Of a stretch of DNA of 64,000 nucleotides, positions 16,122 to 43,661 are shown piece after piece. How positions within the stretch are numbered: position 1 is the stretch's first letter; each line of letters opens with the position of its first letter. Below the pieces are notes generated by a model. That model searched no databases. It saw nothing but the letters and a program-made list of their open reading frames with translations, and had not been told where the DNA came from. The stretch is from Alphaproteobacteria bacterium (lineage in GTDB: Bacteria; Pseudomonadota; Alphaproteobacteria; UBA828): NCBI GenBank assembly GCA_965221125.1, contig CBDCRW010000003.1:288001-352000 (forward strand). The letters are read 5' to 3'. Position numbers and translations under genes: made by a program.

Positions 16122-16282
16122 GCTGCCCTTCTCGCCCACGCCAGGCTCCTGCTCCATCATGGGGTTACTCCGGGCGGGACGGTCGACTCCGCGCCTGGAG
16201 CACGCGCCTCACCCTATCGCAGACGCGCGACTCCGGCAACAATCCGCTTCCGTGTCCCAGCGACGAACGAGGTCGGAGGCTC

Positions 16283-19482: not shown

Positions 19483-20784
19483 ATGAACAAACACATTAGT
19501 ACCGAAGAATTTCTCTTGAAAAAAGCAGGAGAAGATACCGAATTTCGCGCGCGTCTCCTCGCCAGACCCAAAGAAACGATCGAAAGCGAGTTCGGCGTAA
19601 CGCTGGACAAGAACCACACGATTTGCGTGCACGAAGAAAGCGATACCGCGACGCATCTGGTACTTCCGCCGCGCAGCAAGCTCGGCGAGGAAGAACGGGA
19701 AGCCACGAGAACCGGCGCCGCATCGCTCGCGTTCCTTCGCAAGACGCTCCACGACCCCGCGCCGCCGCTTCGCCCTCCCGCCCCTCGGCGTGCGCGCGCC
19801 CCAACGAGCGCTGCGACCCCCGCAGCACTTGCAAGAGCGGGCCGAGACAGCATCCGCCGCGCTCTCGAATTCCTGGAAACCACAATTGACGAGAACGGGG
19901 CCTGGCACTGCATCCGCTTCAACATGGCCGACCCGGACATACCCCGGCATTTCGAACGACCCGCCTTCGTTTCCGCTCTCTGTGTGCTTGCCCTGGAATG
20001 TTGCGGCGACGCGCGGGCCAAGGCCATGTGCACCGCCGCAAAGGCGTATCTCGCTGATACCATCGAATATCCGGGGCTGTGGCGCTACTACCGCCATCTG
20101 CCCCAAGACCTCGACAGCACGACGCTCTGTTCGCTTGTTATCGGCACCCATCCCTGGATTTTTCTGGGACGAAACGTGCCAACAATCTTGGCGAACCGCG
20201 ACGAGAACGGGCTGTTCAGAACCTGGGTGCTGGCGGAAGGCGAACCCGACGTCGTGGCGCCCTTTCGCATCGAAGCCGACCCCGTCGTCAATGCGAACGT
20301 CATCGCCTATCTCGGCGACCGCCCCGAAACGAGGGATGCCCAGCGGTGGCTGGAAGGCTTGATTGCCGAAGGCAGCCTGGAGGGCTCCTCCAAGTGGTAT
20401 CCCGACGCGGTCGCGATCTGCTACGCAATCGCCCGCGCCATGATCCGCGCGGCGCCTGCCCTCGAACACTCACGCCCGGTCCTCGCGGAGCGCATCCTGA
20501 ACCTGCGCGACGAAGACGGAGGGTTTGGCAACATCCTCAAGACCGCGCAGGCCGTCTCGTCGCTATACAACGTCGGACGCCTTGAAAGCCTCGACGCGAA
20601 ACGCACGGTGGAAGAGTTCACAAGTACGCAGCGAGAGGACGGAAGCTGGCCTGAGCTTCTCGCGTTTGGCGATCAGTACCTGAAGTGGGGAGCGGTGGGG
20701 CAAATCGGGCATGGCTCCGAAGCCGTAACCTCTGCCTTTTGTATCGAAGCTCTGGAACGCCTTGTAGAACTATTGGAGTCCTGA
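19483..20784 (+). CDS. NHLP leader domain fused to a class II terpene cyclase / prenyltransferase-like alpha-barrel
   Basis: aa 1-78 align without gaps to the precursor leader (30/78 identical by hand); Pro/Ala linker; QW-like repeats IDENGAW, RDENGLF, RDEDGGF, QREDGSW; acidic motif PQDLDST. Confidence 0.8.
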   Translation: MNKHISTEEFLLKKAGEDTEFRARLLARPKETIESEFGVTLDKNHTICVHEESDTATHLVLPPRSKLGEEEREATRTGAASLAFLRKTLHDPAPPLRPPAPRRARAPTSAATPAALARAGRDSIRRALEFLETTIDENGAWHCIRFNMADPDIPRHFERPAFVSALCVLALECCGDARAKAMCTAAKAYLADTIEYPGLWRYYRHLPQDLDSTTLCSLVIGTHPWIFLGRNVPTILANRDENGLFRTWVLAEGEPDVVAPFRIEADPVVNANVIAYLGDRPETRDAQRWLEGLIAEGSLEGSSKWYPDAVAICYAIARAMIRAAPALEHSRPVLAERILNLRDEDGGFGNILKTAQAVSSLYNVGRLESLDAKRTVEEFTSTQREDGSWPELLAFGDQYLKWGAVGQIGHGSEAVTSAFCIEALERLVELLES

Positions 20785-20861
20785 AGGATTTACAGGCTGC
20801 GTTACTCGGTGGTAACATGAATTTCACGACGATCTATCTCTAGTCCATTAGAGAAGCTGCC

Positions 20862-22487
20862 ATGCCGCAAGACACGGCCGTTGGCGGTGACATGGCCCCG
20901 AACAAGGCTGAAGTCACGCGGCACGTTGCGCCGTCGTTTCTCAACGCCCTGCCGCACTATCTGCCACTGGGCATATTCCCGCTGATCGTGATTGCCGCGC
21001 TCTACGGCGGCTGGTGGTTGTTGCCGGCCTTCGTGTTCATGGGCGTCGCGGGGCCGCTCGATAGGGCGCTCGGCCTCGACGGGCGCAACATGGACCCGGC
21101 GATGACGTCGGAACGGCGCCTCTTCTGGCACAATCTGCCGGTCTGGGTCTGGGCGTTTCTCTGGCCAGCGACGCTGATCTTCGCCATGTGGCAAATCCTC
21201 GTCGCGGATCAGTTCGCCCTTTGGGAAGACGTGCTGCTGGCGATCATTCTGACCATGGAAGCGCAGGCCGTGTTCGTGGTCGGTCACGAGCTGGTTCATC
21301 GCCGCGCGACCTGGGAAAGGCGGCTCGGAGAATTCCTGCTCGCCTCCGCCTCCTATCCGCAATACGCCACGGAGCATGTCTATATCCACCATGCCAAGGT
21401 CGGCACGCCGCACGACGTAGGCTCCGCGCCCAAGGGGGAAAGTTTCTGGCGATATTTCCCCAGGGAAGTCGCAAGCAACCTCACCAACTCCTGGAAAGTC
21501 GCCGGCGAGCGCCTGGCACGGCGCCGGTTGCCCGTGTGGCATTACAGCAATCCGTTCTGGCGCTACGGCATCGCCCTCGCGTGCTGGTACGGGCTGGTGT
21601 TCTGGATGAGCGGCGGCTGGGCGGTGCCGGTCTTCGCCTTCCTCGGGCTCTGCTGCGTCTTTTCCATGAAGATCAGCAATTATTTTCAGCACTACGGGCT
21701 GCGCCGCATCCGTCTGCCCAACGGCCGGTGGGAGAAGGTATTGCCGCGCCATTCCTGGAGCGCCGACTGGAAGTTCAGCAACTGGATGTTCTTCAACATG
21801 CAGCGCCATGCGGATCACCATGCCGCCGCATCCCGCCACTACCCCCTGCTCCAGGCTCTCGGCTCCGACGAATCGCCGGTCCTTCCGGGAACATATGCCG
21901 ACATGATGAACATCGTGCTGCGGCCCAAGCGCTGGTTCGCGAAGATGGATCCGCTGGTCGATCAATGGCGCGCGCACTTCTACCCGCAGATCGACGACTG
22001 GAGCGCCTACGACAGCCGCCTTTCCGCCGCGCGGCCCGACGCCTTCGAGGCGATCGTCGAGATCTTCGGCGCGGCCCCGCGGCTTGCGGCGTGGATCGAA
22101 CGCAATTCGGAGCTCCTGGATAACCTGCAGGACCGCGAGTTCACCGACCTCGACCTGCCGAAGGGATTCGGACCGGACCAGGAATACGAAACCATCGCGC
22201 GGCGCGGGCTCGCGCGACTCTATTGGACGCACGAAATGGGCGTCCCGGACCTGAAGGACCGGGTCTCCGAATTGCCGATGGCCGATGCCAGGGAAGCCGC
22301 CGAGATCGTGCGGAACTGGTCGAACGACAAGGCGTTCCAGATCGGCATGCACGTGGTGCGCGGAAATCTTTCTCCGGCCGAGGCACAGATCGCGCTCTCC
22401 AACCTGGCCGAGGCGGCAGTCTCCACCGTGCTGGCTGCCGTCGCTGCGGATCGCGTCGACCGCGCCGGGTGTTGTTTTCCGGTCTAG
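20862..22487 (+). pseudogene. 5' part of a transposon-split AlkB-type membrane di-iron monooxygenase / GlnE-like fusion
   Basis: His boxes HELVHR, EHVYIHH, NYFQHYGL, QRHADHH; GlnE-like helical region follows; last five residues CCFPV come from the transposon end. Confidence 0.8.
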
Positions 22488-22838
22488 CCGGATAGAAGCA
22501 CGGGTTTTTTTCTCACTTTGATTGGTTGGTGGATTTCCCGGGATGGTGGCCGAGTGCGGGAAGGACGCTGCCTGCGGCATTTTTTTGATCCTCAGCAGAA
22601 TCCTCATTGCTGTTGAAGCTGTGGAGCGGTGGGCGCGAGATCGGCGAGTGTGGTCAGGCGGTGGGCAAGCGCCAGCTTGTCCACGGGCTGTCCACACGGT
22701 CCGCAGGACGCCGATCGGTCCGCAGGACGCGTCCACGGCTCCACAGCTTGGCGGCGGCGGGGAGCGTCCGTAATCTTGGCCTCTCACTGAACGACAAAGA
22801 GAGGCCCGGGGGACGGAACTCCCGCCGGGCCAGGGCCG

Positions 22839-23474
22839 GTGCAGCTTCGCTACGAAACGGGGCTCACCAGCGAGGAATACGTTAAGACCGAGGCGTGGCG
22901 CGACGCAAGGCTTGAGCGCTGCCCGAATCACCCGCACGGCGGATGTTCTGTGGCAAGCCACGGCACCTACGAGCGGAAGACCCCGCCCGGCGCAAGGGTT
23001 CCTCGCTGGTATTGCCGTGAGAGCCATACGACCATCGGCCTGCTGGCCGACTGTCTGGCGGCGCGGCTGCCGGGCACGCTCGATGCGCTGGAAGCGGTTG
23101 TTGTCGTGGCGGAGGAGGCCGGCAGCCTGGAGGAGGCAGCGGACGAGGTGCGCTGCCCCGAGGACGAGGACGCCATCGAGCTTCCCGGCGCCGTGCGTTG
23201 GATCCGCCGCAGGCTGAAGCTTGTGCACGACGCGCTTGTGCGCGTCATCGGCCTGATCCCCGACCTGCTCGCGGGCTGCGCGCCCACCATGAGCGCGGTG
23301 CGCGAGCGTCTGAAGAGCGACAGCGCGTTGATGGAACTGCGCGGCCTGGTCGCCGGGCAGCTCCGGACGCTACCCGCGCCTCTGGGCTTCCAACCCCACG
23401 GCATCGACGTGGGGAATCGCAAACCGCAGTTCCAACAACGGGCGGGGCCGGACCCGCCGCCGGAGAGTTCGTAG
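22839..23474 (+). CDS. Transposon-associated Cys/His zinc-ribbon-like protein (DUF6431-like)
   Basis: CPNH...C...HGTYER...RWYCRESH...LL pattern directly upstream of the transposase. Confidence 0.6.
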   Translation: MQLRYETGLTSEEYVKTEAWRDARLERCPNHPHGGCSVASHGTYERKTPPGARVPRWYCRESHTTIGLLADCLAARLPGTLDALEAVVVVAEEAGSLEEAADEVRCPEDEDAIELPGAVRWIRRRLKLVHDALVRVIGLIPDLLAGCAPTMSAVRERLKSDSALMELRGLVAGQLRTLPAPLGFQPHGIDVGNRKPQFQQRAGPDPPPESS

Positions 23475-23519
23475 CGTGACGATCCCGGGGCCAGGGAGTC
23501 CCTGAACGAGGATCGCACC

Positions 23520-24848
23520 ATGAACAGCTCAGACGACGACCTTCGCCAACAGATCGCGCTCTTCCGATACGACGTCATCGCCGATCTGGTGCATCTGCCC
23601 GTGGGTGCACCGGGTGCCGGCGCGATGATGCGCGCCAAAGCCGAGAAGACCTACACGATCCCCGGAACCACCAGGACCCGGGTCGCCGCCGAGACCATGC
23701 GGCGCTGGATCAAGGACTACCGCTACGGCGGCTTCGACGCGCTCTACCCCAAGCCCCGCACCGACCGGGGGAAGCCCCGGCGGCTGCCGCCCGAGGTCGC
23801 CGAGCGCCTCATCGCGCTGAAGACCGAGAACGACGCATTGTCGGTTCGCGCCATCATCCAGAAGGTCAAGGAGGAGGGTATCGACCACCCGCTCGCCTCG
23901 TCCACCGTGCACCGCCTCTTCAGCCGCGAGGGCCTGTTCGACAAGAAGCCGCCCGACGGGGCGGATCGCCGCCGCTTCGCCTTCCGGCATGCCGGCGAGA
24001 TGTGGATGAGCGACGTCATGCACGGACCCAAGGTCCGGCACGGCCGAACCCGGCGCAAGACCTACCTGATCGCCTTCATCGACGACGCCACCCGCGTCAT
24101 CCCGTTCGCCGCCTTCGCCATGGCGGAGAACACTGCGGCGTTCCTGCCGGTGTTCAAGGACGCGCTGATCCGGCGCGGCCTCCCGGCCCGCTTGTACGTC
24201 GACAACGGAAGCGCCTACCGCTCCCGTCATCTCTCCCTGGTCTGCGCCAGGCTCGGCGTTGCGTTGATTCACGCAAGGGCGTTCCAGCCAGCGGGAAAGG
24301 GTAAGATCGAGCGCTTCTTCCGCACCCTCCGGGCCGGCTGGCTCCGCCACCTCGGCGATGACGTCGACAGCCTGGAGGCGCTCAACCGCAGCCTCTGGGC
24401 CTGGATCGAGGGGGAGTATCACAACAGCCCGCATCGTGGCCTCGACGAGGGGCGCACCCCGCTTGAGCAGTGGGCGCTGGCCTCGGCCGGCGTGCGCTAT
24501 CCCGACGCCACCATGGACCTCGACGATCTGTTCCTCTTCGAGGCCAGGCGCCGTGTCTACAAGGACCGCACCGTTAGTCTGAACGGCCGCGTCTACGAGG
24601 TCGACGCCCTCCTGGTGGGTCAGAACGTCATCCTGCGCTACGACCCGGCCGCGCCGCCCTCGCGCCCTCTCGACGTGGTCCATGACGGCAAGCCGGCCGG
24701 CAAGGCCAGCCCTCTCGACGCCTACGCCAATACCGCCGTCAGGCGCACCTACCCGGCCAGGGAGATCGAGGCCGAAGATCCGGCGCCCGAGCCTCCGCCC
24801 TCGCCGCTGGCCATGCGCAACCTCAAGGACAAGAAGGAGGACGAGTGA
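23520..24848 (+). CDS. DDE transposase/integrase with N-terminal HTH and Mu-type C-terminal domain
   Basis: WMSD (D), YVDNGSAY (D), GKGKIERFF (E); RRVYKDRTVSLNGRVYEV. Confidence 0.93.
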   Translation: MNSSDDDLRQQIALFRYDVIADLVHLPVGAPGAGAMMRAKAEKTYTIPGTTRTRVAAETMRRWIKDYRYGGFDALYPKPRTDRGKPRRLPPEVAERLIALKTENDALSVRAIIQKVKEEGIDHPLASSTVHRLFSREGLFDKKPPDGADRRRFAFRHAGEMWMSDVMHGPKVRHGRTRRKTYLIAFIDDATRVIPFAAFAMAENTAAFLPVFKDALIRRGLPARLYVDNGSAYRSRHLSLVCARLGVALIHARAFQPAGKGKIERFFRTLRAGWLRHLGDDVDSLEALNRSLWAWIEGEYHNSPHRGLDEGRTPLEQWALASAGVRYPDATMDLDDLFLFEARRRVYKDRTVSLNGRVYEVDALLVGQNVILRYDPAAPPSRPLDVVHDGKPAGKASPLDAYANTAVRRTYPAREIEAEDPAPEPPPSPLAMRNLKDKKEDE

Positions 24849-25648
24849 TGTACCTGCGCCACTTCGCCTTCACCCGCCTGCCCTTCGAGACCCCGGCAGA
24901 GACCGACGAGCTGTTCGAGTCCAACGCGCGCCGCGAGGCCGAGGCCAGGCTCGGCCACCTCATCGACCTGCGCGGCATCGGCCTGCTCACCGGCGAGGTG
25001 GGCTCCGGCAAGACCACCGTGTGCCGGCATCTGACCGCGCAGCTTCATCCAGGCCTCTACCGGGTCCACTACGTCTCGCTGACCACGGGCAACGTGCTCG
25101 ACATGTACAAGGCGATCGCGTGGGAGATCGGCCTGCCCATCGAGCGCTCCCGCGCCTCGGCCTATCAGGCCATCCGAAACGAGATCTCCCGCCTCGTCAC
25201 CGAGGCCAAGCAGCTGCCGGTCCTCGTCATCGACGAGGCCCATCATCTGCGCAACGACGTCCTTGAGGACCTGCGCCTGCTCACCAACTTCGCCATGGAT
25301 GCAGAGCAGCGCCTGTGCCTCGTCCTCGTCGGTCTGACCGAGCTCAGGCGCCGCCTGGCCATGGCCATGCACGAATCCCTCAGCCAGCGCCTCGTCGTCC
25401 GCCACCACCTGAGCGGTCTCGACCGCGACGAGGTCGACGCTTACATCAAGCACCGCCTCAGGCTCGCGGGATGCGAACTGCCGCTGTTCGAAGAGCCCGC
25501 CGTCGAGGCCCTGTTCCAGGGCGCGCGCGGCCTGCCGCGCCAGATCAACCGCATCGCCCACTACGCGCTCTCCGCCGCCGCTCTCGACGAGGCGAGGACC
25601 GTCAGTGCCGACCACCTGCAGCACGCGCTCGAGGAACTGCGGCCATGA
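24848..25648 (+). CDS. ExeA-like AAA+ ATPase (transposition helper, TnsC/MuB-like role)
   Basis: GEVGSGKT, VIDEAH, GLPRQIN; coupled to the transposase stop. Confidence 0.88.
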   Translation: MYLRHFAFTRLPFETPAETDELFESNARREAEARLGHLIDLRGIGLLTGEVGSGKTTVCRHLTAQLHPGLYRVHYVSLTTGNVLDMYKAIAWEIGLPIERSRASAYQAIRNEISRLVTEAKQLPVLVIDEAHHLRNDVLEDLRLLTNFAMDAEQRLCLVLVGLTELRRRLAMAMHESLSQRLVVRHHLSGLDRDEVDAYIKHRLRLAGCELPLFEEPAVEALFQGARGLPRQINRIAHYALSAAALDEARTVSADHLQHALEELRP

Positions 25649-26685
25649 CCGGCTTCCCGACCCGCGCCCCGATCGAGCTGGAGGAGCGGCCGCGCGAGCA
25701 GCAATGGCTGGTGGACACGCTATGGGGCGAGCAGGCCGTCGGCATCGTCGGCGGCGAGCCGAAGTGCGGCAAGTCCATCCTGGCGCTGGACCTCGCGGTC
25801 GCAGTCGCCGCCGGCGTCCCATGCCTGCGGCACTTCGCCCCGGCCCGGCCTGGCCCGGTCCTGCTGTTCGCCGCAGAAGACGCCGGCCACCTCGTGCGCA
25901 AGCGCCTGCAGGGGATCGCCCGCGCCGCAGGCGCCCGCTTCGAGACCCTCGACATCGCCGTCATCGACGTGCCCACACTGCGCCTCGACCATCTCGACGA
26001 CCGCCGCCGCCTGCAGCAGACCGTGGAGCGCATCGCACCGCGCCTCGTGGTCCTCGACCCCCTGGTCCGCCTGCACGGCGTGGACGAGAACACGGTTGCG
26101 GACGTCGCCCCGATCCTCGGCTTCCTGCGCGACCTGCAACGCCGCTTCGAGACCGCCGTCCTCCTCGTCCACCACGCCCGCAAGAGCGGGGCCACGAGGC
26201 CGGGGCAGGCCCTGCGGGGCAGCAGTGAGCTGCACGCCTGGGGGGACTCGAACCTCTACCTGCGCCGCCGGGACCGGCAGACCCTCATGACCGTCGAGCA
26301 TCGCGCCGCACGCGGTCTCGACGACATCGAGATCGAGCTCAAGGAAGACGGAGAGGAGCCCTCCTTCCGGCTGCGCCAGCCGCCCACGGCCGGCGGCGGG
26401 GCGCCTCAGCCCGAAACACCCGAATGCCGCGTTCTCAAGGCGCTCGCCGACGCCGGGGCGCCGCTCTCGCAACGCCAGATCCGGGAACGCGCCGCGACCC
26501 GGCACAAGACCGTCGGCGTAATCTTGCAAAAGCTCGTCCAGGAGGGTCGCGTCGCGCGCAACGCCGAGGGCGGCTACAGCGTCGTCGCAGGCGCAGCGGA
26601 CAAGCGGGCGGCGGCCGCCGCCGCCAACGGCAGCAGTCGGCCGCAGGCCCCGCGGTTCCCGGAGCCCGGTTCCGCCAACGCCTAG
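25645..26685 (+). CDS. RecA-fold AAA_25 / RepA-like helicase with C-terminal winged HTH
   Basis: WLVDTLW, GEPKCGKS, AAED, VVLDPL, LVHHARK, RGSSEL; C-terminal LSQRQIRE...LQKLVQEGRV. Confidence 0.8.
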   Translation: MTGFPTRAPIELEERPREQQWLVDTLWGEQAVGIVGGEPKCGKSILALDLAVAVAAGVPCLRHFAPARPGPVLLFAAEDAGHLVRKRLQGIARAAGARFETLDIAVIDVPTLRLDHLDDRRRLQQTVERIAPRLVVLDPLVRLHGVDENTVADVAPILGFLRDLQRRFETAVLLVHHARKSGATRPGQALRGSSELHAWGDSNLYLRRRDRQTLMTVEHRAARGLDDIEIELKEDGEEPSFRLRQPPTAGGGAPQPETPECRVLKALADAGAPLSQRQIRERAATRHKTVGVILQKLVQEGRVARNAEGGYSVVAGAADKRAAAAAANGSSRPQAPRFPEPGSANA

Positions 26686-27095
26686 GGGTTCGAGCCGGAA
26701 CCGCCGTCGGGAACCACCCTTCCCCAACGGTCCGGAAGGCGCTGCGCCTCCACCGGGATACTACGTCAGGTGAGCGGCCAGTCCGTGGCCGGAAGCTTGC
26801 TTCAGGCCATGGCAGCACTTCGTCGTGTGGACGGTGGCGAGTCACCCGAAGGGCCGAAGCGAAGCGCAGGAGCGGCGCAGCCGCTTGACGCGCCGACGGC
26901 CGCGCGACACCTCGTCAGCTCTCCTCAAGCACCAGTCCAAACCTCAATCAGACAGCGACCCCGGACCGCCCGCAGAGACCATGAGCTCCTACGCTTCGAT
27001 CCGGAAAAGACCGAGCAATCTGGGAAATCAGGGCAGCGATCACGTCAAATAATCTGGGAGATTCGGCGTCAAATAACGTGCGAAACAACACCGGG

Positions 27096-27914
27096 CCGCT
27101 GCGGGGCGGCGGGATCGCCGCGGTATTCCTCGGCGATCTCGCGAGCCGGGAGGCGTACCCCGGCGTTGCCATCGACATGCTGTTCGTCCACGACGGCCCG
27201 GAAATCGGCGAGAATGAACGCCTGTGTCGGCGCTTCCGAAAATCTCTCACCGCTCTCGCGCGCGACAGTCTGTTGTTCTCCCCGGTTCCGCCCCGCGCGC
27301 AGGCCCTTCCCGCGCTGCCGCTTTCCGAGCTGGCCGAGCGTTGTAGCGATCTTTCTGCCGACGGAATTCCCGTCCTCACCAGGGCACGCTGCGTGTTCGC
27401 GTGCGGCGATTCCGATATCGGCCGCCGCTTCGGCGAAGCGCGGGGCGAAGCGCTGGCCGCGTGCGTGGCAGACGAGTCCCTGATCGCCCAGCTTCGTGCG
27501 CGGCGCGAAGACCCGGCCGCAACGGGCGTCTCCAACTACGCCCGCATGCGCGGCGGCCTGGAGGATGTCGAGAGGGCCGCGCGAACCCTGCAGGTGACGA
27601 ATGCCGACGCCGCCGTCCCCGACCCGGCGCCGAGCGCTGCGGCGGTGCTCGATGCCGCCGGTGCCCAGGACCTGGCGCAGGCTGCGGCCTTGTGGCGGGA
27701 CCTGCAGGGCATCACGCGCCTCGTCGGCGATGAAAAATTCGACGCGGCCGAGGCGCGGCCCAGGGTCAGGTCTCTCGTTGCGAGCGCGTGCGGGCACGAG
27801 GATTTCGACGCGCTGACGGCGGCGGTCACTGATACCGCATCCCGCGCCGCCGCCCGGATCGACTCGCTTGGTCTCGCGGGCGCCAAGGACGCGCCCGCTC
27901 TTTCGCGCACCTGA
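27096..27914 (+). pseudogene. 3' part of the split AlkB/GlnE-like fusion (degenerate nucleotidyltransferase fold)
   Basis: LGDLASREAYPGVAIDMLFV, TRARCVF and RGGLEDVE recall GlnE; in frame with 20862 once the transposon is removed. Confidence 0.75.
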
Positions 27915-27946
27915 ACGCGCCGGCCGATCCGGCCCGAAAAACCTGA

Positions 27947-30265: not shown

Positions 30266-30273
30266 GGACACCT

Positions 30274-31392: not shown

Positions 31393-31412
31393 AATCGGCC
31401 TCGAAAGAACGA

Positions 31413-31439
31413 ACCCCCCTTCGGTCTGGGAAGGGGGGT
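31413..31439. terminator. Hairpin between convergent genes
   Basis: ACCCCCCTTC-N7-GAAGGGGGGT perfect 10-bp stem; no strong U-tract. Confidence 0.55.
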
Positions 31440-31511
31440 CAGTTCAGGTCGTCAAAGGTCGCGGACTCGGATTGGCCCGCTTCGTGACCGGCTGCGCGCC
31501 GGCCACCCGGC

Positions 31512-31763
31512 CTACCAGCAGCAGCAGAGACCGGCCGAGATGGCTTCGAGCTGCTCTTCGGTAATGTTCGGGTCCGGCGGCAACGCCAGATGCACCGTCT
31601 GCATGTCGCTCTCGTGGACCTTGATGGTCATCGATTCCGGAATCGTGATGCCCAATTCCTCGCTGATGGTGTTCTTCGGGTCCGCGAGAAGCTGTTGCCT
31701 GAAGTCCGAATCCAGAGAGGACTTCTCGACAATGTGTTGCAGCATTTCATCGCCACTTCTCAT
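31512..31763 (-). CDS. srpE: NHLP/proteusin precursor peptide, 78-aa leader + core LCCCW
   Basis: DSDFRQQLLADPK...VHE...HLALPP...ITEEQLEAISAG then LCCCW; GGAGGA RBS; symbol from recall of the LCCCW core. Confidence 0.92.
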   Translation of the reverse strand: MRSGDEMLQHIVEKSSLDSDFRQQLLADPKNTISEELGITIPESMTIKVHESDMQTVHLALPPDPNITEEQLEAISAGLCCCW

Positions 31764-31912
31764 GGCAATCCTCCATAGTTCCGGGCGGCGGGCGGCTCCC
31801 TTGGGCGGGCACCGATATCACTAGCATGTCACCAAATCAAGCATTCAGGATATATCTCACAAGATCAAGCATTCGGGTTAAACAAAATAATTATGGCGGC
31901 AGTAAGTAATTG

Positions 31913-34345: not shown

Positions 34346-34382
34346 AGGACCGAGGCCCCTAGTTGCGGGCGGCCTGCTCGCA

Positions 34383-37322: not shown

Positions 37323-39526
37323 CAGCCCGACATGACCAGCTTGTAGTACGTGCCGTCCTCGTCCGCGATCAGCGCGTCGTGCGTTCCGCGCTGCACCTCC
37401 GCGCCCTTGTCGAGCACGATGATCTCGTCGCAATCCCGCACGGTGCTCAGCCGGTGCGCCACGATCAGGCAGGTGACGCCGCGCCGCCGCAAGGCATCGT
37501 CGACGTATTCCTCCGTCGCGGCGTCTAGAGCGCTGGTCGCCTCGTCCAGAACGATCACCGTCGGATGGCCGACCAGCGCACGGGCGATTTCCAGCCTCTG
37601 CCGCTGGCCGCCGCTGAAATTCACCCCGCCTTCCTCGACCGGGGTCGCGTAGCCTTGAGGCCTGAGCAGGATTTCGTCGTGGATCCGGGCATCCCGCGTC
37701 GCGGCGACGATGGCCTCGTCGGGAACGGCCGGGTTCCACAACGTGATGTTGTCGCGCAGCGAGGCGGAGAAGAGCACGACATCCTGATCCACCATGGAAA
37801 TGGACCGCCGCAGCACGTCCTCCGGAATCTCCTCCCGAAGATGGCCGTCGAACAGCACTTCGCCCGACCAGGGCTGACAGATGCCCGAAACCAGACGCGC
37901 GAGCGTCGACTTTCCGGAACCGCTGGGGCCGACGATGGCAACCCGCTGCCCCGGCTCCAGCACGAGATTGAAGTCCTTTATCAAGGGCGGCCGGCTCTTG
38001 TTGAAACCGAATGTGACGTTTCTGAGTTCGAGATGGCCGGCAAGCTGGAGCCGGCCGTTGAAGGTGGAGATCGACTCCGATTCCTGGCTGCGGCGGCTGA
38101 TGACCGGGTCTTGCGCGGCCTTGGAGATGTCGTCCAGCCGTTGCAGGTCGGTCTCCAGCGCCTTGCGCCTGTCAGCAAACTCCAGGAAGCGCCCGACAGG
38201 CGCGAGAAACATCTCCGCCAGGATGTAGAACCCAACCAGAGTGCCGAGCGTCATGTCTCCGGCCAGGACCATGCTGCCCCCGAGGCCCAGGATCGCCGCT
38301 GCGCGCAGCGCGGCGACGAGGCCCGGAAGCGCGGTGTTGACGGAGCCCAGCTCGGAATAAAGCTGGCGCGCATGCAACTCGCGCGCCTGCTGACCGCTCC
38401 AGCGCGAGAAGAAGCGGTCGTCCGCGCCCGTCATGCGCAGGTTCTCGGCATGGCTCAGCATCTGCATGCCAACGCCGATCAGCAGCCCCTGCTCGCGCCG
38501 CATCGCCTGGCTTCGCACGGCGCGGAGCGCGTTGAGACCATGCGCCAGCAATCCGTGCACGATCGCCAGCAACAGCACGATCAGCGTGAGCACGACGTCG
38601 TAGGCGAACATCGCGATGAGCAGCACGGCGCTCATTGCCATGTCTATGATGAGCACGAGGAACTGGTCCGTCAGGTTCTTCGCTATCCGGTCGACGGACG
38701 AGACCCGGTCGGTCAGGTCGCCGACCAGCCTGTGCTCGAAGAACTCCACGGGCAATCGCAGCAGACGCGACAAGCTCCGGCTGTAGCCGATCACCGAAAT
38801 CCGCACGGCAAGCCGCTTCAGGAAGCGGTGCCTGAGAAGGGACAGGATGTAGACCAGCGCTCCGCCGCCAAGCAGGGCCGCCACCAGTCCGCCCCAGCGC
38901 CCGTGGTTTTCCAGGACATCGTCCACGAACACGCTGAGAGACGCGGGAACGATGAGCGCCAGCAGCGTCAGCATGAATCCGCAGGCGACCACACCGGTGA
39001 GCATGCGCCACGAGTCGACGAGCGAGGCGCTCAGTTGCCGGAACAGGTCGGGCTGCTTGCCGCCGGGGCTGAAATCGGCGCCGCGCTTGAACCGCAGCGC
39101 GATACCGCTGTAGTCCTTCTCGAATTCTTCCGCCGTGAGCCTGCGCCGCCCCGTGGACGGGTCATTGAGATGGTGATGGCGGCCGTCGAACCCCTCGTAG
39201 ACGACGAAATGGCTGAACTGCCAGAACAGGATCAGAGGCAAGTCCAGCTTTTTCAGCTGCGCGGCGCGCACGCTGAGCCCGTTGCATTCGAGACCGTAGT
39301 GCCTGGATGCGCGCAGGATGCTCGCGGCGCTGCTGCCGTCCCGGCTCACCTCGCATTTCTCGCGCAGCTCGGTCAGCGGCACCCAGCGCCCGAAATAGGC
39401 CAGCACGCTGCCGAGGCAGGCGGCCCCGCATTCCGATGCATGCATCTGCAGCAGAATGGGCGTGGTTACCCGTCGCTTCGAGACGTCCGCCTGATCTCCG
39501 GTTTTCTTCGAGGCGCGTCGCAGCAT
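37322..39526 (-). CDS. NHLM C39 peptidase / ABC transporter
   Basis: QMHASECGAACL, HFVVYEG and NDP (catalytic Cys/His/Asp present); GPSGSGKS, FSGGQRQRLEIARAL. Confidence 0.93.
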   Translation of the reverse strand: MLRRASKKTGDQADVSKRRVTTPILLQMHASECGAACLGSVLAYFGRWVPLTELREKCEVSRDGSSAASILRASRHYGLECNGLSVRAAQLKKLDLPLILFWQFSHFVVYEGFDGRHHHLNDPSTGRRRLTAEEFEKDYSGIALRFKRGADFSPGGKQPDLFRQLSASLVDSWRMLTGVVACGFMLTLLALIVPASLSVFVDDVLENHGRWGGLVAALLGGGALVYILSLLRHRFLKRLAVRISVIGYSRSLSRLLRLPVEFFEHRLVGDLTDRVSSVDRIAKNLTDQFLVLIIDMAMSAVLLIAMFAYDVVLTLIVLLLAIVHGLLAHGLNALRAVRSQAMRREQGLLIGVGMQMLSHAENLRMTGADDRFFSRWSGQQARELHARQLYSELGSVNTALPGLVAALRAAAILGLGGSMVLAGDMTLGTLVGFYILAEMFLAPVGRFLEFADRRKALETDLQRLDDISKAAQDPVISRRSQESESISTFNGRLQLAGHLELRNVTFGFNKSRPPLIKDFNLVLEPGQRVAIVGPSGSGKSTLARLVSGICQPWSGEVLFDGHLREEIPEDVLRRSISMVDQDVVLFSASLRDNITLWNPAVPDEAIVAATRDARIHDEILLRPQGYATPVEEGGVNFSGGQRQRLEIARALVGHPTVIVLDEATSALDAATEEYVDDALRRRGVTCLIVAHRLSTVRDCDEIIVLDKGAEVQRGTHDALIADEDGTYYKLVMSG

Positions 39527-39538
39527 CTCTTGGCCGCC

Positions 39539-40078
39539 TCAATCGAAGAAGGCGACCGGAGCCTGGGTGCCCAGCTCAATGACGATCCGGCACTTGCCGC
39601 CCGCAAGCGACGCAAGATCAACGCTTTCGTCGAGCGCGATATCGACGCGGTGCACGGTCACCGGCGCCGTGGACGCAACTGCCGTCAACTCTTCGGACAC
39701 GGGCGCGGGCGACATCGTCTCGATCACGCCGTCGAGCGTGCCGGATGTTCCACCGGCCAGGTCCACCTCTATCGCCACGGAAACACCGGCCTCGATATCC
39801 TCCGCGACGTCGCCCTCGATCCAGACGAGTGCGTGCACGGACCGCTGGCCTTCGGGCGAGTCGATGCCCGGCTCGAGCAACACGCCGTCGACCGCAAGGC
39901 TGCGGGTCACGCTGCCGAAGAAGAGCCACGCCAGGAGGATGCACAGCAACAGGGCGACACCGACGACCAGCAGACGCTCCCGCGGCGTGGAAATCGTCAG
40001 CAGGCGGTCGAGCTGTTCTCGTTCGTCCTTCGCCTCGGCGACAGTATTATGAAACGAGTCGAATGGACTATTAAACAT
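39539..40078 (-). CDS. Shortened NHLM secretion (HlyD-like) protein
   Basis: EQLDRLLTISTPR + single TM + LAWLFFGSV; only 179 aa. Confidence 0.7.
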   Translation of the reverse strand: MFNSPFDSFHNTVAEAKDEREQLDRLLTISTPRERLLVVGVALLLCILLAWLFFGSVTRSLAVDGVLLEPGIDSPEGQRSVHALVWIEGDVAEDIEAGVSVAIEVDLAGGTSGTLDGVIETMSPAPVSEELTAVASTAPVTVHRVDIALDESVDLASLAGGKCRIVIELGTQAPVAFFD

Positions 40079-40254
40079 AACCGTGCGTCGCCTCCCCGCG
40101 GAGAGCCAGCAGAGACAAAGAAAATCCGATTCGGTGCGGCAAAAACTGGGGAGGTCCTATACAATCTCGACCAAGTGATAACAAGTCCTCAGGTCCGGGA
40201 CGCCGGGACATCGAACGATTCCGGCAAACCAACGCACGATGCGGCACGTTCATC

Positions 40255-41142
40255 ATGAGATCTGCGCGGATACTGCCTGACCGCATAACCGCCGAAAGGC
40301 GGTTCAGCAAGCAGGGCCGTACAAAGAGTTGCACGCGCCCCCGGCGGGCTTCGTTCGGTATCCTCATTCTTGCGCTGGCGTGCCTCGTCCTGCCGGGCGC
40401 ACACGCCCTTGCCCAGGAAGAAACGCCGGAGGACAAGGGTTTGCGGATCGCGCTGGAAGCAAGCGCGCGCAACGACGGCTTTCAGGACTTCACCGCCGGA
40501 ATGACGATGGTGCTGCGCGACCGGCACGGCCGCGAGAGCGTGCGCCAGATGCGCTTCAAGGTGCTGGAGGTGCCGGGAGACGGCGACAAGAGCCTGTTCG
40601 TGTTCGACGAGCCGCGGGACGTGCAGGGAACCGCCCTGCTCACTCACGCGCACGTCAACAGCCAGGACGACCAGTGGCTTTACCTGCCGGCCCTGAAAAG
40701 AGTGAAGCGCATCAACGCCGCGCGGCGTTCGGGATCGTTCATGGGAAGCGAGTTCTCGTACGAGGACATGAGCTCGCTGGAGGTGGAGGAATACACCTAC
40801 AAATACCTTCGCGACGAGCCCTGCGGCGACCTCACCTGCACGGTGATCGAGCAGGTTCCCCTGGATGAGGAGTCCGGCTACAGCCGCAGGGTCGTCTGGC
40901 AGGATGCGGTTGAGCTTCGAACCTGGAAGATGGAGCTTTACGACCGCAAGGGCTCGCACCTGAAGACGCTTACCTTCGCCGACTATCGGCAATACCTGGA
41001 CCAATATTGGCGGGCGGGCGAGCAGACGATGGTCAATCACCTGACCGGCGCGAGCACGGTGCTTGAATGGACCGATTTTCGCTTCCGCACCGATATCGCC
41101 GAAAGCGAGTTTACCCAAACGGCACTCCGACGCGTGCGCTGA
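40255..41142 (+). CDS. LolA-like outer-membrane lipoprotein-sorting protein (start uncertain)
   Basis: FDEPRDVQGTALL, DDQWLYLPALKRVKRI, SFMGSEFSYED, LKTL. Confidence 0.85.
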   Translation: MRSARILPDRITAERRFSKQGRTKSCTRPRRASFGILILALACLVLPGAHALAQEETPEDKGLRIALEASARNDGFQDFTAGMTMVLRDRHGRESVRQMRFKVLEVPGDGDKSLFVFDEPRDVQGTALLTHAHVNSQDDQWLYLPALKRVKRINAARRSGSFMGSEFSYEDMSSLEVEEYTYKYLRDEPCGDLTCTVIEQVPLDEESGYSRRVVWQDAVELRTWKMELYDRKGSHLKTLTFADYRQYLDQYWRAGEQTMVNHLTGASTVLEWTDFRFRTDIAESEFTQTALRRVR

Positions 41143-42371
41143 TGCGGCCCGCCGGCGCACTTGCGGCCCTCGTGCTCCTGGCCGCCGCCGGTGCCGAGGC
41201 GCAGCCTCTCGATATTTCCGGCGACCTGAGCGCGCAGGCGCAGTGGTATCCGCAATCGCCGGCCTTCGCCGGTCAGCGTTCCGCCACCGGCGGGCTGGTC
41301 CTCGAGCCGACGCTCTACGGGGACGTCGCGAATAGAACCAGCGTCACCCTCACCGCCTTTTATCGCTACGACAGCGCCGATGCGGAGCGCACACATGCGG
41401 ACCTGCGCGAGGCCTACGTGTTGACCTATGGAGACTGGGACGAGAATTCCTGGGAGCTTCGGCTGGGCGTCGACCGCGTGTTCTGGGGCGTGGCCGAGCT
41501 GCACAACCTCGTCGATATCGTCAACCAATTGGACATCGTCGAGCACCCGCGCGACCGCCCCAAACTGGGTCAGCCCATGGCGCACCTGACGCTTTCCGGC
41601 GACTGGGGCATCGCCGAATCTTTTCTGCTGCCGTACCACCGCAAGCGCACGTTTCCGGGGCGTGCCGGGCGCAACCGTTCGGAGCACCCGATCGACGGGG
41701 ACGCCCAGTACGAGAGCGGTGCCGAAGAGCGCCATCTCGATGTTGCGTTTCGCTACAGCAATGCCGTGGACCTGCTCGATTTCGGCCTTACCGCCTTCGT
41801 CGGCACGAGCCGCGAACCTTCGTTTCTCGTTCGCCCCCGGTCGCAGCCGTCGGCAGAAACAGGCACGCGCCTGATCCCGTACTACGAGCAAATCCGACAG
41901 TTCGGGCTGGACGCGCAACTCACGACCGAGCCCTGGCTCTACAAGCTGGAAGCCATTCACCGTCGTGGCGCGCGCAATCTGCTGGGCGTGGTGGAGGATT
42001 ACAGCGCCTTGATCTTCGGCATGGAACGCACGTTCTACGCGGTGTTCGAGTCCCGCGAGGACCTGACCGTTCTCGCCGAGTGGCACTACGACGGCCGCGA
42101 ACGCCGCGCCACGAGCGCCTGGGCGAACGACCTGTTTGTCGCGGGCGCGCTCACGTTCAACGATGTTGACGGCACCGAGCTGGTGGCGGGCATTCTCGCC
42201 GACCTCCGCCACGACACGCGCTCGTTGAACCTGGAATTCAAACGGCGCCTCACGAACAGCTGGACGATGCGCCTGGAAGGGATCGCGTACCTGAGCGCCG
42301 ACCCGCAGGATTTGACCTACGGTGGGCGGCGCGACAGCTACCTGGGCACGGATTTCACCTACAGCTTCTGA
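41142..42371 (+). CDS. Putative outer-membrane beta-barrel protein
   Basis: Signal peptide ending AEA-Q, DLREAY, FWGVAE...LVDIVNQ, C-terminal FTYSF. Confidence 0.7.
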   Translation: MRPAGALAALVLLAAAGAEAQPLDISGDLSAQAQWYPQSPAFAGQRSATGGLVLEPTLYGDVANRTSVTLTAFYRYDSADAERTHADLREAYVLTYGDWDENSWELRLGVDRVFWGVAELHNLVDIVNQLDIVEHPRDRPKLGQPMAHLTLSGDWGIAESFLLPYHRKRTFPGRAGRNRSEHPIDGDAQYESGAEERHLDVAFRYSNAVDLLDFGLTAFVGTSREPSFLVRPRSQPSAETGTRLIPYYEQIRQFGLDAQLTTEPWLYKLEAIHRRGARNLLGVVEDYSALIFGMERTFYAVFESREDLTVLAEWHYDGRERRATSAWANDLFVAGALTFNDVDGTELVAGILADLRHDTRSLNLEFKRRLTNSWTMRLEGIAYLSADPQDLTYGGRRDSYLGTDFTYSF

Positions 42372-42386
42372 CGGCGGCAGCGCGCG

Positions 42387-43661
42387 ATGATACAGCCGGG
42401 CATTGAATCTCTACGGAAGATCGCGGTCGTCGGGCGGGGAACCGCAGGGTCGCTGGCGGCTGCCAGCGTGACGAGTCTTCTCCCCGACGGCGACCACGAG
42501 CTCCACCACATTTACGACTCGCGCATTCCGGTCATTGGCGTCGGCGAAGGCAGCTGGCCGAGCCTGGTTCAGGAGTTGCAGAAACTGACGAACCTGCCTC
42601 ACGAAACCGTCCAGCAGCGCCTGAAGGGAACGCGCAAGTACGGCGTCGCATTCGAGGGGTGGGGTCGGCGCAACCGAGACTTCACGCACTACTTCACGCC
42701 GCAGCAGGTCTCCTACGCCTACCACCTCTCCGCCGACCTGATGGGGGAGCTGCTGCACGAAAGCACGCGCGCGCAACACATCGACGCGAGAGTGCTCGAC
42801 ATCAGAAGGGTGGACGGCGGCGCGCTCGTGGAACTCGAAGGCATGGCGCCGGAACGCTACGACCTGGTCTTCGATGCCCGCGGTTTTCCCAAGCAGCTTC
42901 AGCCCGAGCGCCAAATCGACATTTCATTCATCCCAACCAATACGGCCATCATCCGCCGCTGCCCGGCAATCATCGAGGAAGAACCGGATCGGCCGGCTCT
43001 GCAGCATACCTATACCCGCGCGGTTGCCCGCCCACACGGCTGGGTCTTCGTCATTCCGCTGACGGTGCACACGTCCTACGGGTACATCTTCAACCGCGAC
43101 GTCTCCAGCCAAGCGGACGTCGAGTCGGACTTCGACGCGTTCCTCAAGGCCGATGGCGTGACCGAATACGAGCAGCGCGCCGTCATTCCGTTCCCCAATT
43201 TCGTCCACCGTCGAATCTTCGATGGCGCGGTGGCGCGCATCGGCAATGCCGCAGCCTTCATGGAGCCGCTCGAAGCGACGGCGATCGTCTCCGCTCAGTT
43301 GCAGATCGGGATGGTTCTCCACATCCGTCTGAATCGCTCGATAGAACATCTCGAGCGCGACGCGCCGGTGGTCAATCGCTTCCTCGTCAACAACATGCTT
43401 TGCTACGGCCTGTTCGTCGGCTGGCACTATTCCTGCGGCTCGACGTACGACAGCCCGTTCTGGCGCCACGCGCGCGAGGGCGCCTGGCCGCAACACCGCA
43501 AGGCCGCGGCACCCGAGATGGTGGATTGTGCCGCGCTCAGCAAGTTCGATGACATGATCGCGCTGCTGAATAGGCCCGTCATCGACAAGGCGGGCTGGAA
43601 CCGGATGTGCGCGGTCCCTCTCACCAGCTATGCCCAGATGTCTCAGGGCCTCGGCTGCTAG
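42387..43661 (+). CDS. srpI: Flavin-dependent tryptophan-halogenase-family enzyme (peptidyl-Trp brominase-like)
   Basis: GRGTAG, IGVGEGS, candidate catalytic Lys in GTRKYGV, GWVFVIP (WxWxIP-like), GNAAAFMEPLEAT; precursor ends in Trp. Confidence 0.85.
   Translation: MIQPGIESLRKIAVVGRGTAGSLAAASVTSLLPDGDHELHHIYDSRIPVIGVGEGSWPSLVQELQKLTNLPHETVQQRLKGTRKYGVAFEGWGRRNRDFTHYFTPQQVSYAYHLSADLMGELLHESTRAQHIDARVLDIRRVDGGALVELEGMAPERYDLVFDARGFPKQLQPERQIDISFIPTNTAIIRRCPAIIEEEPDRPALQHTYTRAVARPHGWVFVIPLTVHTSYGYIFNRDVSSQADVESDFDAFLKADGVTEYEQRAVIPFPNFVHRRIFDGAVARIGNAAAFMEPLEATAIVSAQLQIGMVLHIRLNRSIEHLERDAPVVNRFLVNNMLCYGLFVGWHYSCGSTYDSPFWRHAREGAWPQHRKAAAPEMVDCAALSKFDDMIALLNRPVIDKAGWNRMCAVPLTSYAQMSQGLGC

Follow-up and report, generated by a model that had tools for sequence, protein, structure and literature searches.

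A copy of the sponge-derived srp proteusin cluster in an alphaproteobacterial genome, with candidate prenylation genes and a transposon-split oxygenase gene

We find that positions 19483-43661 of the window (the whole stretch of 64,000 nucleotides analysed) hold a copy of srp, a sponge-derived RiPP proteusin cluster known from the literature, in an alphaproteobacterial genome. Our best explanation of the whole, which we consider moderately probable, combines this srp copy with further steps of prenylation, cyclisation, oxidation and export, and with an AlkB fusion gene that is split here; it is plausible that the product is prenylated and perhaps also cyclised and oxidised. Newly described here are the transposon that splits the AlkB-GlnE-like gene and the degenerate active site of its GlnE-like part.

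The srp core genes

All the elements that an earlier sequence-only reading had listed are present over this span, including the leader-fused cyclase-like protein, the AlkB-type fusion, the orphan gene and the MMPL/LolA-like/barrel set, and its NHLP precursor with a five-residue core, YcaO, Trp halogenase and C39 exporter are confirmed by Pfam and NCBIfam matches and by coordinates; strand assignments are backed by GC3 frame analysis. The precursor (31512-31763, minus strand, 83 aa) ends in EAISAGLCCCW. The NHLP leader model TIGR03793 scores 70 bits on it (cut-off 50.9) and its match stops at residue 78, leaving the 5-aa core LCCCW after AG. The YcaO gene (27947-30265, plus strand, 772 aa) encodes an SrpC-type fused E1-like/YcaO cyclodehydratase (PF02624 E 1.7e-95, with TIGR03604 and TIGR03882 matched too) which, against PDB sequences, matches LynD over its full length (4v1t, E 5.4e-171) as well as TruD and MusD. 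The flavin-dependent, SrpI-type Trp halogenase (42387-43661, plus strand, 424 aa; PF04820 E 1.1e-44) matches Trp halogenases in the PDB down to E 6.9e-26, and its orthologues adjoin srp loci at 82-87% identity.

As far as the excerpts of PMC10858898 and PMC10286304 go, the srp clusters of Nguyen et al. (J Am Chem Soc 2021) are defined by LCCCW together with SrpC and SrpI, SrpC turning the three Cys of the SrpE core LCCCW into thiazolines and SrpI brominating the C-terminal Trp, in agreement with what the earlier reading had said of srp and its Trp bromination. Because the AG/LCCCW core, the YcaO and the Trp halogenase match this definition, we identify the region as srp. The NHLP precursor with its LCCCW core, the YcaO cyclodehydratase and the Trp halogenase are thus common to both, whereas the AlkB-GlnE-like gene is here split by a 4.6-kb multicopy transposon. 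Going by srp enzymes elsewhere, the YcaO would convert the three core Cys to thiazolines and the halogenase would brominate the terminal Trp. In the srp-related papers that we consulted, we found no description of the final srp product.

Accessory genes around the precursor

Relatives of the precursor are encoded by 271 species genomes, and all 80 related loci retained from this search end in AGLCCCW. Loci in many phyla carry a common gene set at 60-95% identity, and the accessory genes are conserved with it: taking 57 full-length LCCCW loci with 10 kb on either side, we count the YcaO in 55, the orphan gene in 51, the toroid protein in 49, the AlkB part in 46 and the halogenase in 41. Whole-genome look-ups recover the 'missing' gene just beyond the locus in 5/5 genomes for the orphan, 5/5 for the halogenase and 4/5 for the MMPL gene. 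The earlier reading had offered non-conservation of these genes across LCCCW clusters as grounds for giving up its account, and with conservation of this extent that objection falls away. Any other gene family turns up in at most 7 of the 80 loci, and the cluster encodes no prenyl diphosphate synthase or rubredoxin.

The 372-aa 'orphan' protein (30274-31392, plus strand) has no Pfam or NCBIfam match, Pfam matches none of 59 members of its family, and a PDB sequence profile search with it gave no match. Its AlphaFold2 model has a pLDDT of 94.6, and from this high-confidence model we predict an ABBA (PT-barrel) fold of the indole prenyltransferase type. The top Foldseek matches listed are all aromatic (ABBA) prenyltransferases (E 2.4e-7), PagF and LimF are among the fold matches, and VIA-align gives Z 17.2 for MpnD, 16.1 for FunA, 15.9 for DMATS1 and 15.8 for CymD. 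Indole prenyltransferases as a set align at Z 17.2-15.5 over about 300 of the 372 residues, and the model is nearer to these DMATS-type enzymes (Z 15-17) than to the NphB/EpzP group (Z about 13). The ESM Atlas links the protein to the Trp_DMAT and PTase_Orf2 clusters. Residues kept in the family include R211, R213, R216, K316, K347, K359, H345, Y132, Y361 and E64, and judging from the alignment of 611 representatives the basic and Tyr/aromatic residues on the barrel strands appear strongly kept. If the predicted fold is catalytic, the protein would place an isoprenoid chain on the peptide, most likely on the indole of the bromo-Trp. ABBA-fold proteins may also be inactive, as in PatF.

The second accessory protein (19483-20784, plus strand, 433 aa) joins an NHLP leader-like domain (residues ~1-78), which is colinear with the leader of the precursor, through a Pro-rich linker to an alpha/alpha-toroid domain of ~310 aa. 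Its N-terminus matches PDB 8tb1 (MprE7 NHLP); the protein matches TIGR03793 and two Pfam families, SQHop_cyclase_C (29.5 bits, cut-off 26.1) and NHase_alpha, both of which are also matched by 26/26 orthologues. The ESM Atlas sets it among SQHop_cyclase_C/AstC-like_C clusters (0.96). The model is poor (pLDDT 52.9), and in this low-confidence form its best structural matches are MstE (Z 12.6 over 289 residues), bacterial drimenol/drimenyl-diphosphate synthases (drimenol synthase Z 13.6) and the small cyclases 8pak and 6ij1, with non-terpenoid toroids nearly as high (cellobiose 2-epimerase, Z 11.2). Identity to MstE and the drimenol synthases is 12-21%, and, unlike the protein here, none of these cyclases has an NHLP domain; an hhalign comparison with the squalene-hopene cyclase of this genome aligns one repeat only (probability 43%). 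The NHLP domain of the protein also departs from the precursor leader, whose L(X)4L-type motif has a second hydrophobic position that is missing in the domain, with R72 invariant there. An invariant D209-L-D211-S-T, kept among orthologues as D-L-D-S-[TS], is a candidate counterpart of the MstE/drimenol-synthase acid motif. Overall the protein looks most like the small class II terpene cyclases, and as an NHLP-tagged, single-domain protein of this kind it may cyclise the attached chain. MstE, going by the titles of its structure entries, cyclises a prenyl chain already on an aromatic ring.

How should we read these two proteins? They could be accessories of another kind: the product would be just the exported Leu-(thiazoline)3-6-bromo-Trp peptide, with the ABBA protein non-catalytic or a scaffold and the toroid protein a mimic of the leader, there to stabilise, activate or regulate the YcaO. 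An absent partner would explain why recombinant SrpC was weakly active, could not be purified and modified SrpE only partly (excerpts of PMC10286304), and both the colinearity of the toroid N-terminus with the leader up to G78 and the lack of a prenyltransferase signature in the Pfam and PDB profile searches fit such a role. We nonetheless consider this unlikely, given the strongly kept basic and aromatic residues of the ABBA barrel, the preservation of D-x-D-S-T and the entire toroid domain at 72-92% identity across phyla, and the co-occurrence of the AlkB oxygenase and a hydrophobe-type exporter with both proteins.

The RiPP-terpenoid that the sequence-only reading had proposed, prenylated or lipidated, cyclised and oxidised, fares differently part by part. 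Prenylation is favoured because of the confident prenyltransferase fold of the 30274 gene, cyclisation is suggested by a superfamily match with a low-confidence model, and oxidation is indicated by AlkB-family features, against which stands an oxygenase gene that is broken here.

Export genes and published parallels

Two sets of transport genes accompany the cluster. The C39 peptidase-ABC exporter (37322-39526, minus strand, 734 aa; PF03412 E 3.1e-33; TIGR03796 839.6 bits, cut-off 853.3) lies beside an NHLP-system ABC permease/ATPase without peptidase domain (34383-37325, minus strand, 980 aa; TIGR03797 679.9 bits, cut-off 709.4), whose orthologues align over residues 1-980. A mini-HlyD-like protein (39539-40078, minus strand, 179 aa), with TIGR03794 at positions 6-56 as its sole match (E 1e-4), keeps its place beside the ABC pair in relatives. 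Together these would cut the leader after AG and export the peptide. The second set comprises an MMPL/HAE3-type RND inner-membrane transporter (31913-34345, minus strand, 810 aa; PF03176 E 1e-33), with orthologues beside srp genes at 76-84% identity, a periplasmic LolA-like protein whose N-terminus resembles a signal peptide (40255-41142, plus strand; PF17131 E 5.1e-61, DUF1329 E 2.4e-10) and a putative DUF1302-like outer-membrane barrel (41067-42371, plus strand). The likely true start of the barrel is ATG 41142, which precedes a signal-peptide-like stretch, and its gene adjoins the LolA-like gene in 27/80 loci. The second NHLP-type ABC gene and the 179-aa mini-HlyD, like the transposon in the AlkB fusion, were absent from the sequence-only reading.

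By analogy with AmeABCD of Castellaniella defragrans, an efflux system for apolar monoterpenes in which an HAE3 RND pump is combined with a LolA/DUF1329 protein and an outer-membrane protein of the DUF1302 type (PMC6394551), the second set may move a hydrophobic product across the envelope. An inner-membrane HAE3/MMPL pump is shared with AmeABCD and with the HpnN hopanoid transporters (HAE3 RND; PMC6394551). Periplasmic LolA-superfamily (DUF1329) and DUF1302-type outer-membrane proteins are common to AmeABCD and the set here, but the DUF1302 match of the barrel (E 1.2e-4, 21.6 bits) is under the Pfam cut-off of 23.2 and no AmeC-like (COG4447) gene is found among the conserved genes.

For the peptide-modifying steps, the published parallel by analogy is the mpp cluster of Moorena producens (MppE, MppM, MppI, MppC, MppD, MppG), with an SrpI-like brominase, an ABBA prenyltransferase that puts geranyl on C5 of the Trp indole in a leader-dependent manner, a terpene synthase and an oxygenase (PMC11791876, PMC12715784). 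The likeness is one of gene content, with a long structured leader and a cryptic product in both, but mpp makes a Nif11-leader lanthipeptide with LanM and without YcaO, where we find an NHLP leader and a YcaO; the terpene-enzyme candidate here is the leader-domain toroid protein and the oxygenase an AlkB-type membrane enzyme. Cyanobactin systems (LynD/TruD with PagF/LimF-type ABBA prenyltransferases) likewise set a LynD-like YcaO beside an ABBA-fold protein, but the leader here is NHLP-type and there are no PatA/PatG proteases or macrocyclisation.

The prenyltransferase, toroid, AlkB and MMPL/LolA-like/barrel genes could instead make and export a separate small meroterpenoid or lipid, such as a prenylated free indole, their link with the RiPP genes being no more than joint inheritance. 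The enzymes that the prenyltransferase matches best in structure do act on free Trp, indolactam or diketopiperazines, MstE and the drimenol synthases are small-molecule enzymes, and the AmeABCD cargo is free monoterpenes (PMC6394551). Gene order argues otherwise: the prenyltransferase gene is the immediate divergent neighbour of the precursor in 65/80 loci and shares a block with the YcaO in 61/80, the orphan-YcaO-AlkB-toroid block being complete in 39/80. Moreover, the toroid protein bears a leader-like domain of the precursor's own family, the 80 loci have no recurrent gene that would supply a separate aromatic substrate, and MppC exemplifies a leader-dependent peptide prenyltransferase (PMC11791876, PMC12715784), all of which makes a separate product improbable.

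It is very unlikely that the toroid protein instead carries its NHLP domain as a secretion tag, with the C39-ABC cutting after T-G78 and exporting a ~350-aa toroid domain that would work on the exported peptide in the periplasm, ahead of its transport by the MMPL/LolA-like/barrel set. In favour of this, G78 aligns gap-free with the precursor's cleavage-site Gly, G78 and A79 are invariant in 26/26 orthologues and a periplasm-to-outer-membrane transport set is at hand. Against it, where the precursor (L-E-A-I-S-A-G) has hydrophobic residues, the toroid protein has A/T at position -4 and an invariant Arg at -7 relative to G78, and what comes after the Gly is a Pro-rich linker, not a core. We know of no case in which a C39-ABC-type transporter exports folded toroid domains.

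The split AlkB-GlnE-like gene

We return to our preferred reading, in which the AlkB-type membrane oxygenase would, from its sequence features, hydroxylate a methyl of the lipid or of Leu. Its 5' part (20862-22469, plus strand, 536 codons) matches FA_desaturase (E 2.6e-28), covers no more of the GlnE profile than positions 3-117, and carries the motifs HELVHR, EHVYIHH, NYFQHYGL and HADHH; across the window and the 80 loci together, NYxQHYGL was found 53 times. The 3' part (27096-27914, plus strand, 272 codons and stop) matches positions 807-976 of the GlnE model NF010706. In relatives both parts are contiguous (tblastn), and locus L009 encodes an uninterrupted orthologue of 798 aa. Most orthologues are missing the D-x-D pair of the GlnE-like domain, leaving the active site degenerate; a domain lacking this nucleotidyltransferase catalytic pair therefore probably serves binding or regulation.

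Between the parts lies a transposon (22470-27090, plus strand, 4,621 bp) with termini TGTTGTTT...AAACAACA, bordered by the 5-bp direct duplication CCGGG (22465-22469 and 27091-27095). Its four plus-strand ORFs encode a protein of no family (22839-23474), one with rve and Mu-transposase C domains (23520-24848), an AAA_22/TniB-like protein (24845-25648) and one with AAA_25 and MarR-like domains (25645-26685). The 5' ORF continues for 18 nt inside the element, as far as 22487; by coordinate arithmetic, removing the element and one CCGGG copy brings the 3' part in frame with the 5' part. The element was found at none of the 80 related loci. In the genome here it is present in 17 full copies and 3 near-full ones, with 100% identity among them; it has expanded recently in this genome and split the oxygenase fusion gene, of which no second copy was found in the genome. 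The pathway here is therefore impaired or halted before oxidation, and in full it cannot run unless the truncated protein works. The contigs of runs X1-X3 end exactly at 22470 and 27090.

An srp cluster and its relatives

We map the 19483-43661 segment of the window by combining GC3-based frame analysis, ORF translations and Pfam/NCBIfam scans. On the plus strand, a 433-aa protein whose N-terminus is NHLP leader-like and whose toroid domain resembles squalene-hopene cyclases (19483-20784) is followed by an AlkB-type FA_desaturase domain joined to the opening portion of a GlnE-like domain (20862-22487), four mobile-element ORFs (22839-26685), the remainder of the GlnE-like domain (27078-27914), a fused E1-like/YcaO protein (27947-30265) and a 372-aa protein without family, the orphan (30274-31392). 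The minus strand carries the 83-aa NHLP precursor with C-terminal EAISAG-LCCCW (31512-31763), an MMPL protein (31913-34345), a second ABC protein of NHLP type (34383-37325), a C39-ABC protein (37322-39526) and a mini-HlyD of 179 aa (39539-40078). A LolA_like gene (40255-41142), a DUF1302-like barrel (41067-42371) and a Trp halogenase (42387-43661) complete the map on the plus strand. All of the elements listed by the sequence-only reading are present here; three features go beyond its inventory, namely a second ABC gene, a mini-HlyD and the mobile element.

The cluster is an already known one, the srp cluster of sponge-derived RiPP proteusins. It has a precursor with an NHLP leader and an LCCCW core, an SrpC-type YcaO cyclodehydratase (encoded no more than 10 kb from the precursor in 55 of 57 full-length LCCCW loci) and, at the family level only, an SrpI-type flavin-dependent Trp halogenase (PF04820, PDB Trp halogenases). 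The srp literature describes a precursor, SrpE, whose LCCCW core has its three Cys converted to thiazolines by the YcaO SrpC and its C-terminal Trp brominated by SrpI (PMC10858898, PMC10286304); the core chemistry reported there is thiazoline formation and Trp-6 bromination, with the thiazoline peptide termed merely the 'likely physiological substrate' of SrpI (PMC10286304). Work on sponge microbiomes reports that srp clusters are widespread there (preprint 10.1101/2023.06.09.544420; PMC9426513) and, according to the preprint, highly transcribed in sponges. The literature searched, which had the original srp description and its supplements outside its scope, gave us no name or characterisation for the remaining srp genes, no srp accessory-gene assignment under the names SrpA/B/D/F or under proteusin with prenyl and terpene cyclase, and no description of the srp product or its role.

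How general is this gene set? When the precursor is used to scan a single genome of each species, 271 genomes turn out to have a relative, and 80 loci are retained; by record title these come from Alpha- and Gammaproteobacteria, Acidobacteriota, Gemmatimonadota, Binatia, Nitrospirales and others, and every one of the 80 has the AGLCCCW terminus. All genes of the window were compared with these loci by tblastn, and in the 57 full-length loci we counted those lying up to 10 kb to either side of the precursor; the counts are lower bounds. After YcaO, the most frequent genes are the orphan (51 loci), the toroid protein (49), the AlkB part (46), the second ABC (44) and the halogenase (41), followed by C39-ABC (25), LolA-like (24), barrel (20) and MMPL (16), and neither the transposon genes nor the flanking genes of the window occur in any of the 57. 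Whole-genome look-ups place orthologues just beyond the locus limits for the orphan and the halogenase in 5/5 genomes each and for MMPL in 4/5. In 65 of the 80 loci the orphan gene lies divergently beside the precursor, the block orphan-YcaO-AlkB-toroid is unbroken in 39, and the gene order of the window belongs to the same class as that of loci L009, L021, L056 and L066. A search of the 80 loci for further conserved genes (prenyl diphosphate synthase, azoline dehydrogenase, rubredoxin) returned no family in more than 7. The sequence-only reading took the accessory genes as pointers to a terpene- or lipid-modified halogenated RiPP and named lack of conservation as what would speak against it; by tblastn counts and gene order, these genes are conserved across LCCCW loci. 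The srp cluster is common to symbionts of many phyla.

The closest relative, L001, has a precursor 100% identical to that of the window. Its orphan gene matches in two pieces with overlapping coordinates (residues 1-154 and 160-371; L001:10378-11458), as does its halogenase in two pieces (residues 1-131 and 175-423; L001:18006-19137), which suggests frameshifts or assembly errors in that locus.

The orphan and the leader-tagged toroid protein

Profile searches of Pfam, NCBIfam and PDB sequences with the orphan protein give zero matches; its family comprises 611 representatives (E <= 0.001), and none of 59 members hits Trp_DMAT, PTase_Orf2 or DUF5838 at E <= 0.1. In the ESM Atlas, the feature similarity of the orphan to Trp_DMAT and PTase_Orf2 clusters is 0.88-0.90. 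The AlphaFold2 model built from 59 sequences has a pLDDT of 94.6 and a pTM of 0.92 and shows the PT-barrel, a fold of alpha-beta-beta-alpha repeats. The top Foldseek matches listed for this model are all ABBA aromatic prenyltransferases, with E from 2.4e-7, and include EpzP, FamD1, AmbP1/3, NphB, DMATS1, CloQ, PagF and LimF. Pairwise alignment with VIA-align gives Z 17.2 for MpnD (rmsd 4.5, 302 residues aligned), Z 16.1 for FunA, 15.9 for DMATS1 and 15.8 for CymD (about 300 of the 372 residues), and Z of about 13 for the NphB/EpzP group. Within the family, conservation reaches 88% or more for R211, R213, R216, K316, K347, K359, H345, Y132 and Y361. E64 is a further conserved residue, and the conserved residues lie mostly on barrel strands; the basic and Tyr residues would suit a putative diphosphate site. 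At the level of fold, the model makes the assignment as a predicted ABBA prenyltransferase well supported. We infer from it that the orphan would transfer a prenyl group to the peptide Trp.

The toroid protein (19483-20784) combines two recognisable parts. Its residues 1-78 give a gap-free alignment with the leader of the precursor, both ending at the same Gly, and this N-terminus matches the solved NHLP structure 8tb1. At position 72 the precursor has Leu and the toroid protein has an invariant Arg, so the C-terminal hydrophobic motif of the leader is not kept in the toroid protein. That motif is reported to engage SrpI, RRE domains and C39 domains (PMC12455567, PMC12537861). The conserved leader-like domain of the toroid protein may account for the poor behaviour of SrpC alone in E. 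coli.

The C-terminal 310 residues match SQHop_cyclase_C in 26 of 26 orthologues (29.5 bits for the protein of the window, cut-off 26.1) and show the alpha/alpha toroid of the terpenoid cyclase/prenyltransferase superfamily; Atlas clusters of SQHop_cyclase_C and AstC-like_C resemble the domain at 0.96. The structure model from the 26 close orthologues is poor (pLDDT 52.9). Its best structural matches are small class II cyclases (6ij1, 8pak, drimenol synthases, MstE), with cyclases at the top Z of 13.6-12.2 and other toroid enzymes only about 2 Z lower, epimerases reaching 11.2. Comparison of the family with the genome's own squalene-hopene cyclase by hhalign gives a match of one repeat only at a probability of 43%, and the PDB profile search finds squalene-hopene cyclase (E 0.0094) and RabGGTase beta (E 0.25), again with one repeat each. 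Class II terpene cyclases use a general-acid motif of the DxDD type. The toroid orthologues share an invariant D209-L-D211-S-T, a putative counterpart that recalls this acid motif.

A transposon in the AlkB fusion gene

The gene that starts at 20862 begins with an FA_desaturase domain (PF00487, E 2.6e-28) and contains HELVHR, EHVYIHH, NYFQHYGL and HADHH. The AlkB alkane-1-monooxygenase family is marked by His boxes and a NYxEHYGL-like motif, and the AlkB part has both the domain and the motifs; the form NYxQHYGL gives 53 matches in the 80 loci and the window. In relatives the fusion of this part with the GlnE-like domain is a single ORF (798 aa in L009; at least 740 aa in 49 of 51 extracted orthologues). 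The fusion of the window is broken after codon 536.

Alignment with L001 and L009 places the start of the insert, TGTTGTTT, at 22470 and its end, AAACAACA, at 27090. It is a transposon of 4,621 bp with TGT...ACA ends and a 5-bp target duplication, CCGGG being duplicated on both sides, and its genes encode a rve/Mu-type (Mu-C) transposase, an AAA_22 protein, an AAA_25 plus MarR-like protein and one unknown ORF. The 4.58-Mb genome carries the element 17 times at full length and 3 times nearly so, at 100% identity throughout, which looks like a recent burst as in host-restricted symbionts. One of these copies sits outside the window, only about 8 kb upstream.

Contigs from sequencing runs X1-X3 stop exactly at 22470 and 27090, and among the contigs listed for these runs those internal to the element have depths of 337-1057 versus 7-71 for flanking ones. 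The join of 22469 to 27096 that would restore the gene is absent among the 15 of 53 joints listed for contigs of runs X1-X3 and X5; because contigs drop rare variants, an intact form could persist in part of the population. The genome has no second AlkB copy. The srp copy in this genome is damaged by the recent transposon burst, and the insertion marks a pathway under erosion in this symbiont.

The GlnE-like domain of the fusion aligns to the host's own GlnE at E 3e-17. It has V-A-I-E/D at the position of the host's S-D-L-D; the nucleotidyltransferase D-x-D pair is absent, and the first Asp is missing in most of the 49 intact orthologues. We read the domain, on its sequence, as probably non-catalytic or altered. 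The genome also encodes two full-length GlnE-like proteins (1045 aa and 994 aa), both of which combine a GlnE with a GlnD_UR_UTase domain, at L082:878-4015 (contig 3 of the same genome, outside the window) and L081:1955-4939.

Transport, candidate product and genomic setting

The C39-ABC protein scores 839.6 bits against a cut-off of 853.3 (TIGR03796), the second ABC 679.9 against 709.4 (TIGR03797), and the mini-HlyD matches only positions 6-56 of 421 (TIGR03794); slightly below the NCBI cut-offs as they are, the three would fit an NHLP export set. The remaining transport genes resemble AmeABCD, which confers tolerance to apolar monoterpenes and consists of a HAE3 RND pump acting with a LolA-superfamily protein and an outer-membrane protein of the DUF1302 type (PMC6394551). 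The likeness consists of family matches for MMPL and LolA_like and a DUF1302 match under the Pfam cut-off. An AmeC-like gene is missing from the conserved srp genes of the 80 loci. By analogy, this resemblance would suit a hydrophobic cargo. In its listed form the barrel ORF shares 76 bases with the LolA-like gene (41067-41142), but its start is more likely the internal ATG at 41142, before a signal-peptide-like stretch (ALAALVLLAAAGAEA).

What might these enzymes make together? Tentatively, and with the odds against it, we propose a peptide-meroterpenoid: the predicted prenyltransferase would add a polyprenyl group to the bromo-Trp of a tri-thiazoline pentapeptide, the NHLP-tagged toroid protein, as a single-domain class II terpene cyclase, would then cyclise this chain on the peptide, and the AlkB-type oxygenase would finally hydroxylate the product. 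Recruitment of the cyclase to the peptide would go by way of the copy of the precursor's NHLP leader that it carries itself. We regard the cyclisation and the oxidation as plausible. The closest published parallel for such chemistry is the Moorena mpp cluster, which has an SrpI-like brominase and MppC, an ABBA prenyltransferase that geranylates the Trp indole at C5 only with the leader attached, as well as genes for a terpene synthase and an oxygenase (PMC11791876, PMC12715784). With mpp, a RiPP whose Trp is brominated and prenylated is already a published idea, though not for srp. If the proposal is true, the toroid protein would be the first of the class II terpene cyclases to act on a ribosomal peptide, as well as the first natural enzyme to use a leader-peptide domain as recruitment module, and a peptide-meroterpenoid would be the product of the RiPP cluster that is most widespread among sponge symbionts. 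A confident prenyltransferase fold beside the precursor gives mass spectrometry a target, namely a feature with three sulfurs and a bromine isotope pattern, increased by n x 68 Da.

The genes flanking the cluster belong to ordinary metabolism: a carboxyltransferase C/D subdomain protein (17477-18349), a CN-hydrolase (43837-44877) and an amidohydrolase/hydantoinase-like protein (45063-46427), none of them matched in the 80 related loci. The G+C content is 0.62-0.65 in several 2-kb bins of the cluster versus 0.68-0.73 in the flanks; together with the unmatched flanks, this lower G+C is consistent with a horizontally acquired island.

An isoprenoid/hopanoid group lies 3 kb upstream of the cluster (9300-16208), with dxs (9300-11216), a squalene-hopene cyclase (11143-13212) and, on the minus strand, a radical-SAM DUF3463 protein (13977-15179) and ispH/LytB (15180-16208). 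We do not take the proximity of these hopanoid/MEP genes to srp as functional evidence, judged with the three flanking genes as queries in place of the hopanoid/MEP genes themselves: these flanks have 0/80 matches, and unmatched gene families recur in 7 of the 80 loci at most. The adjacency is therefore probably coincidence. Runs labelled sponge metagenome contain 0.17-0.24 of the sampled words, a figure that we do not use as evidence of habitat.
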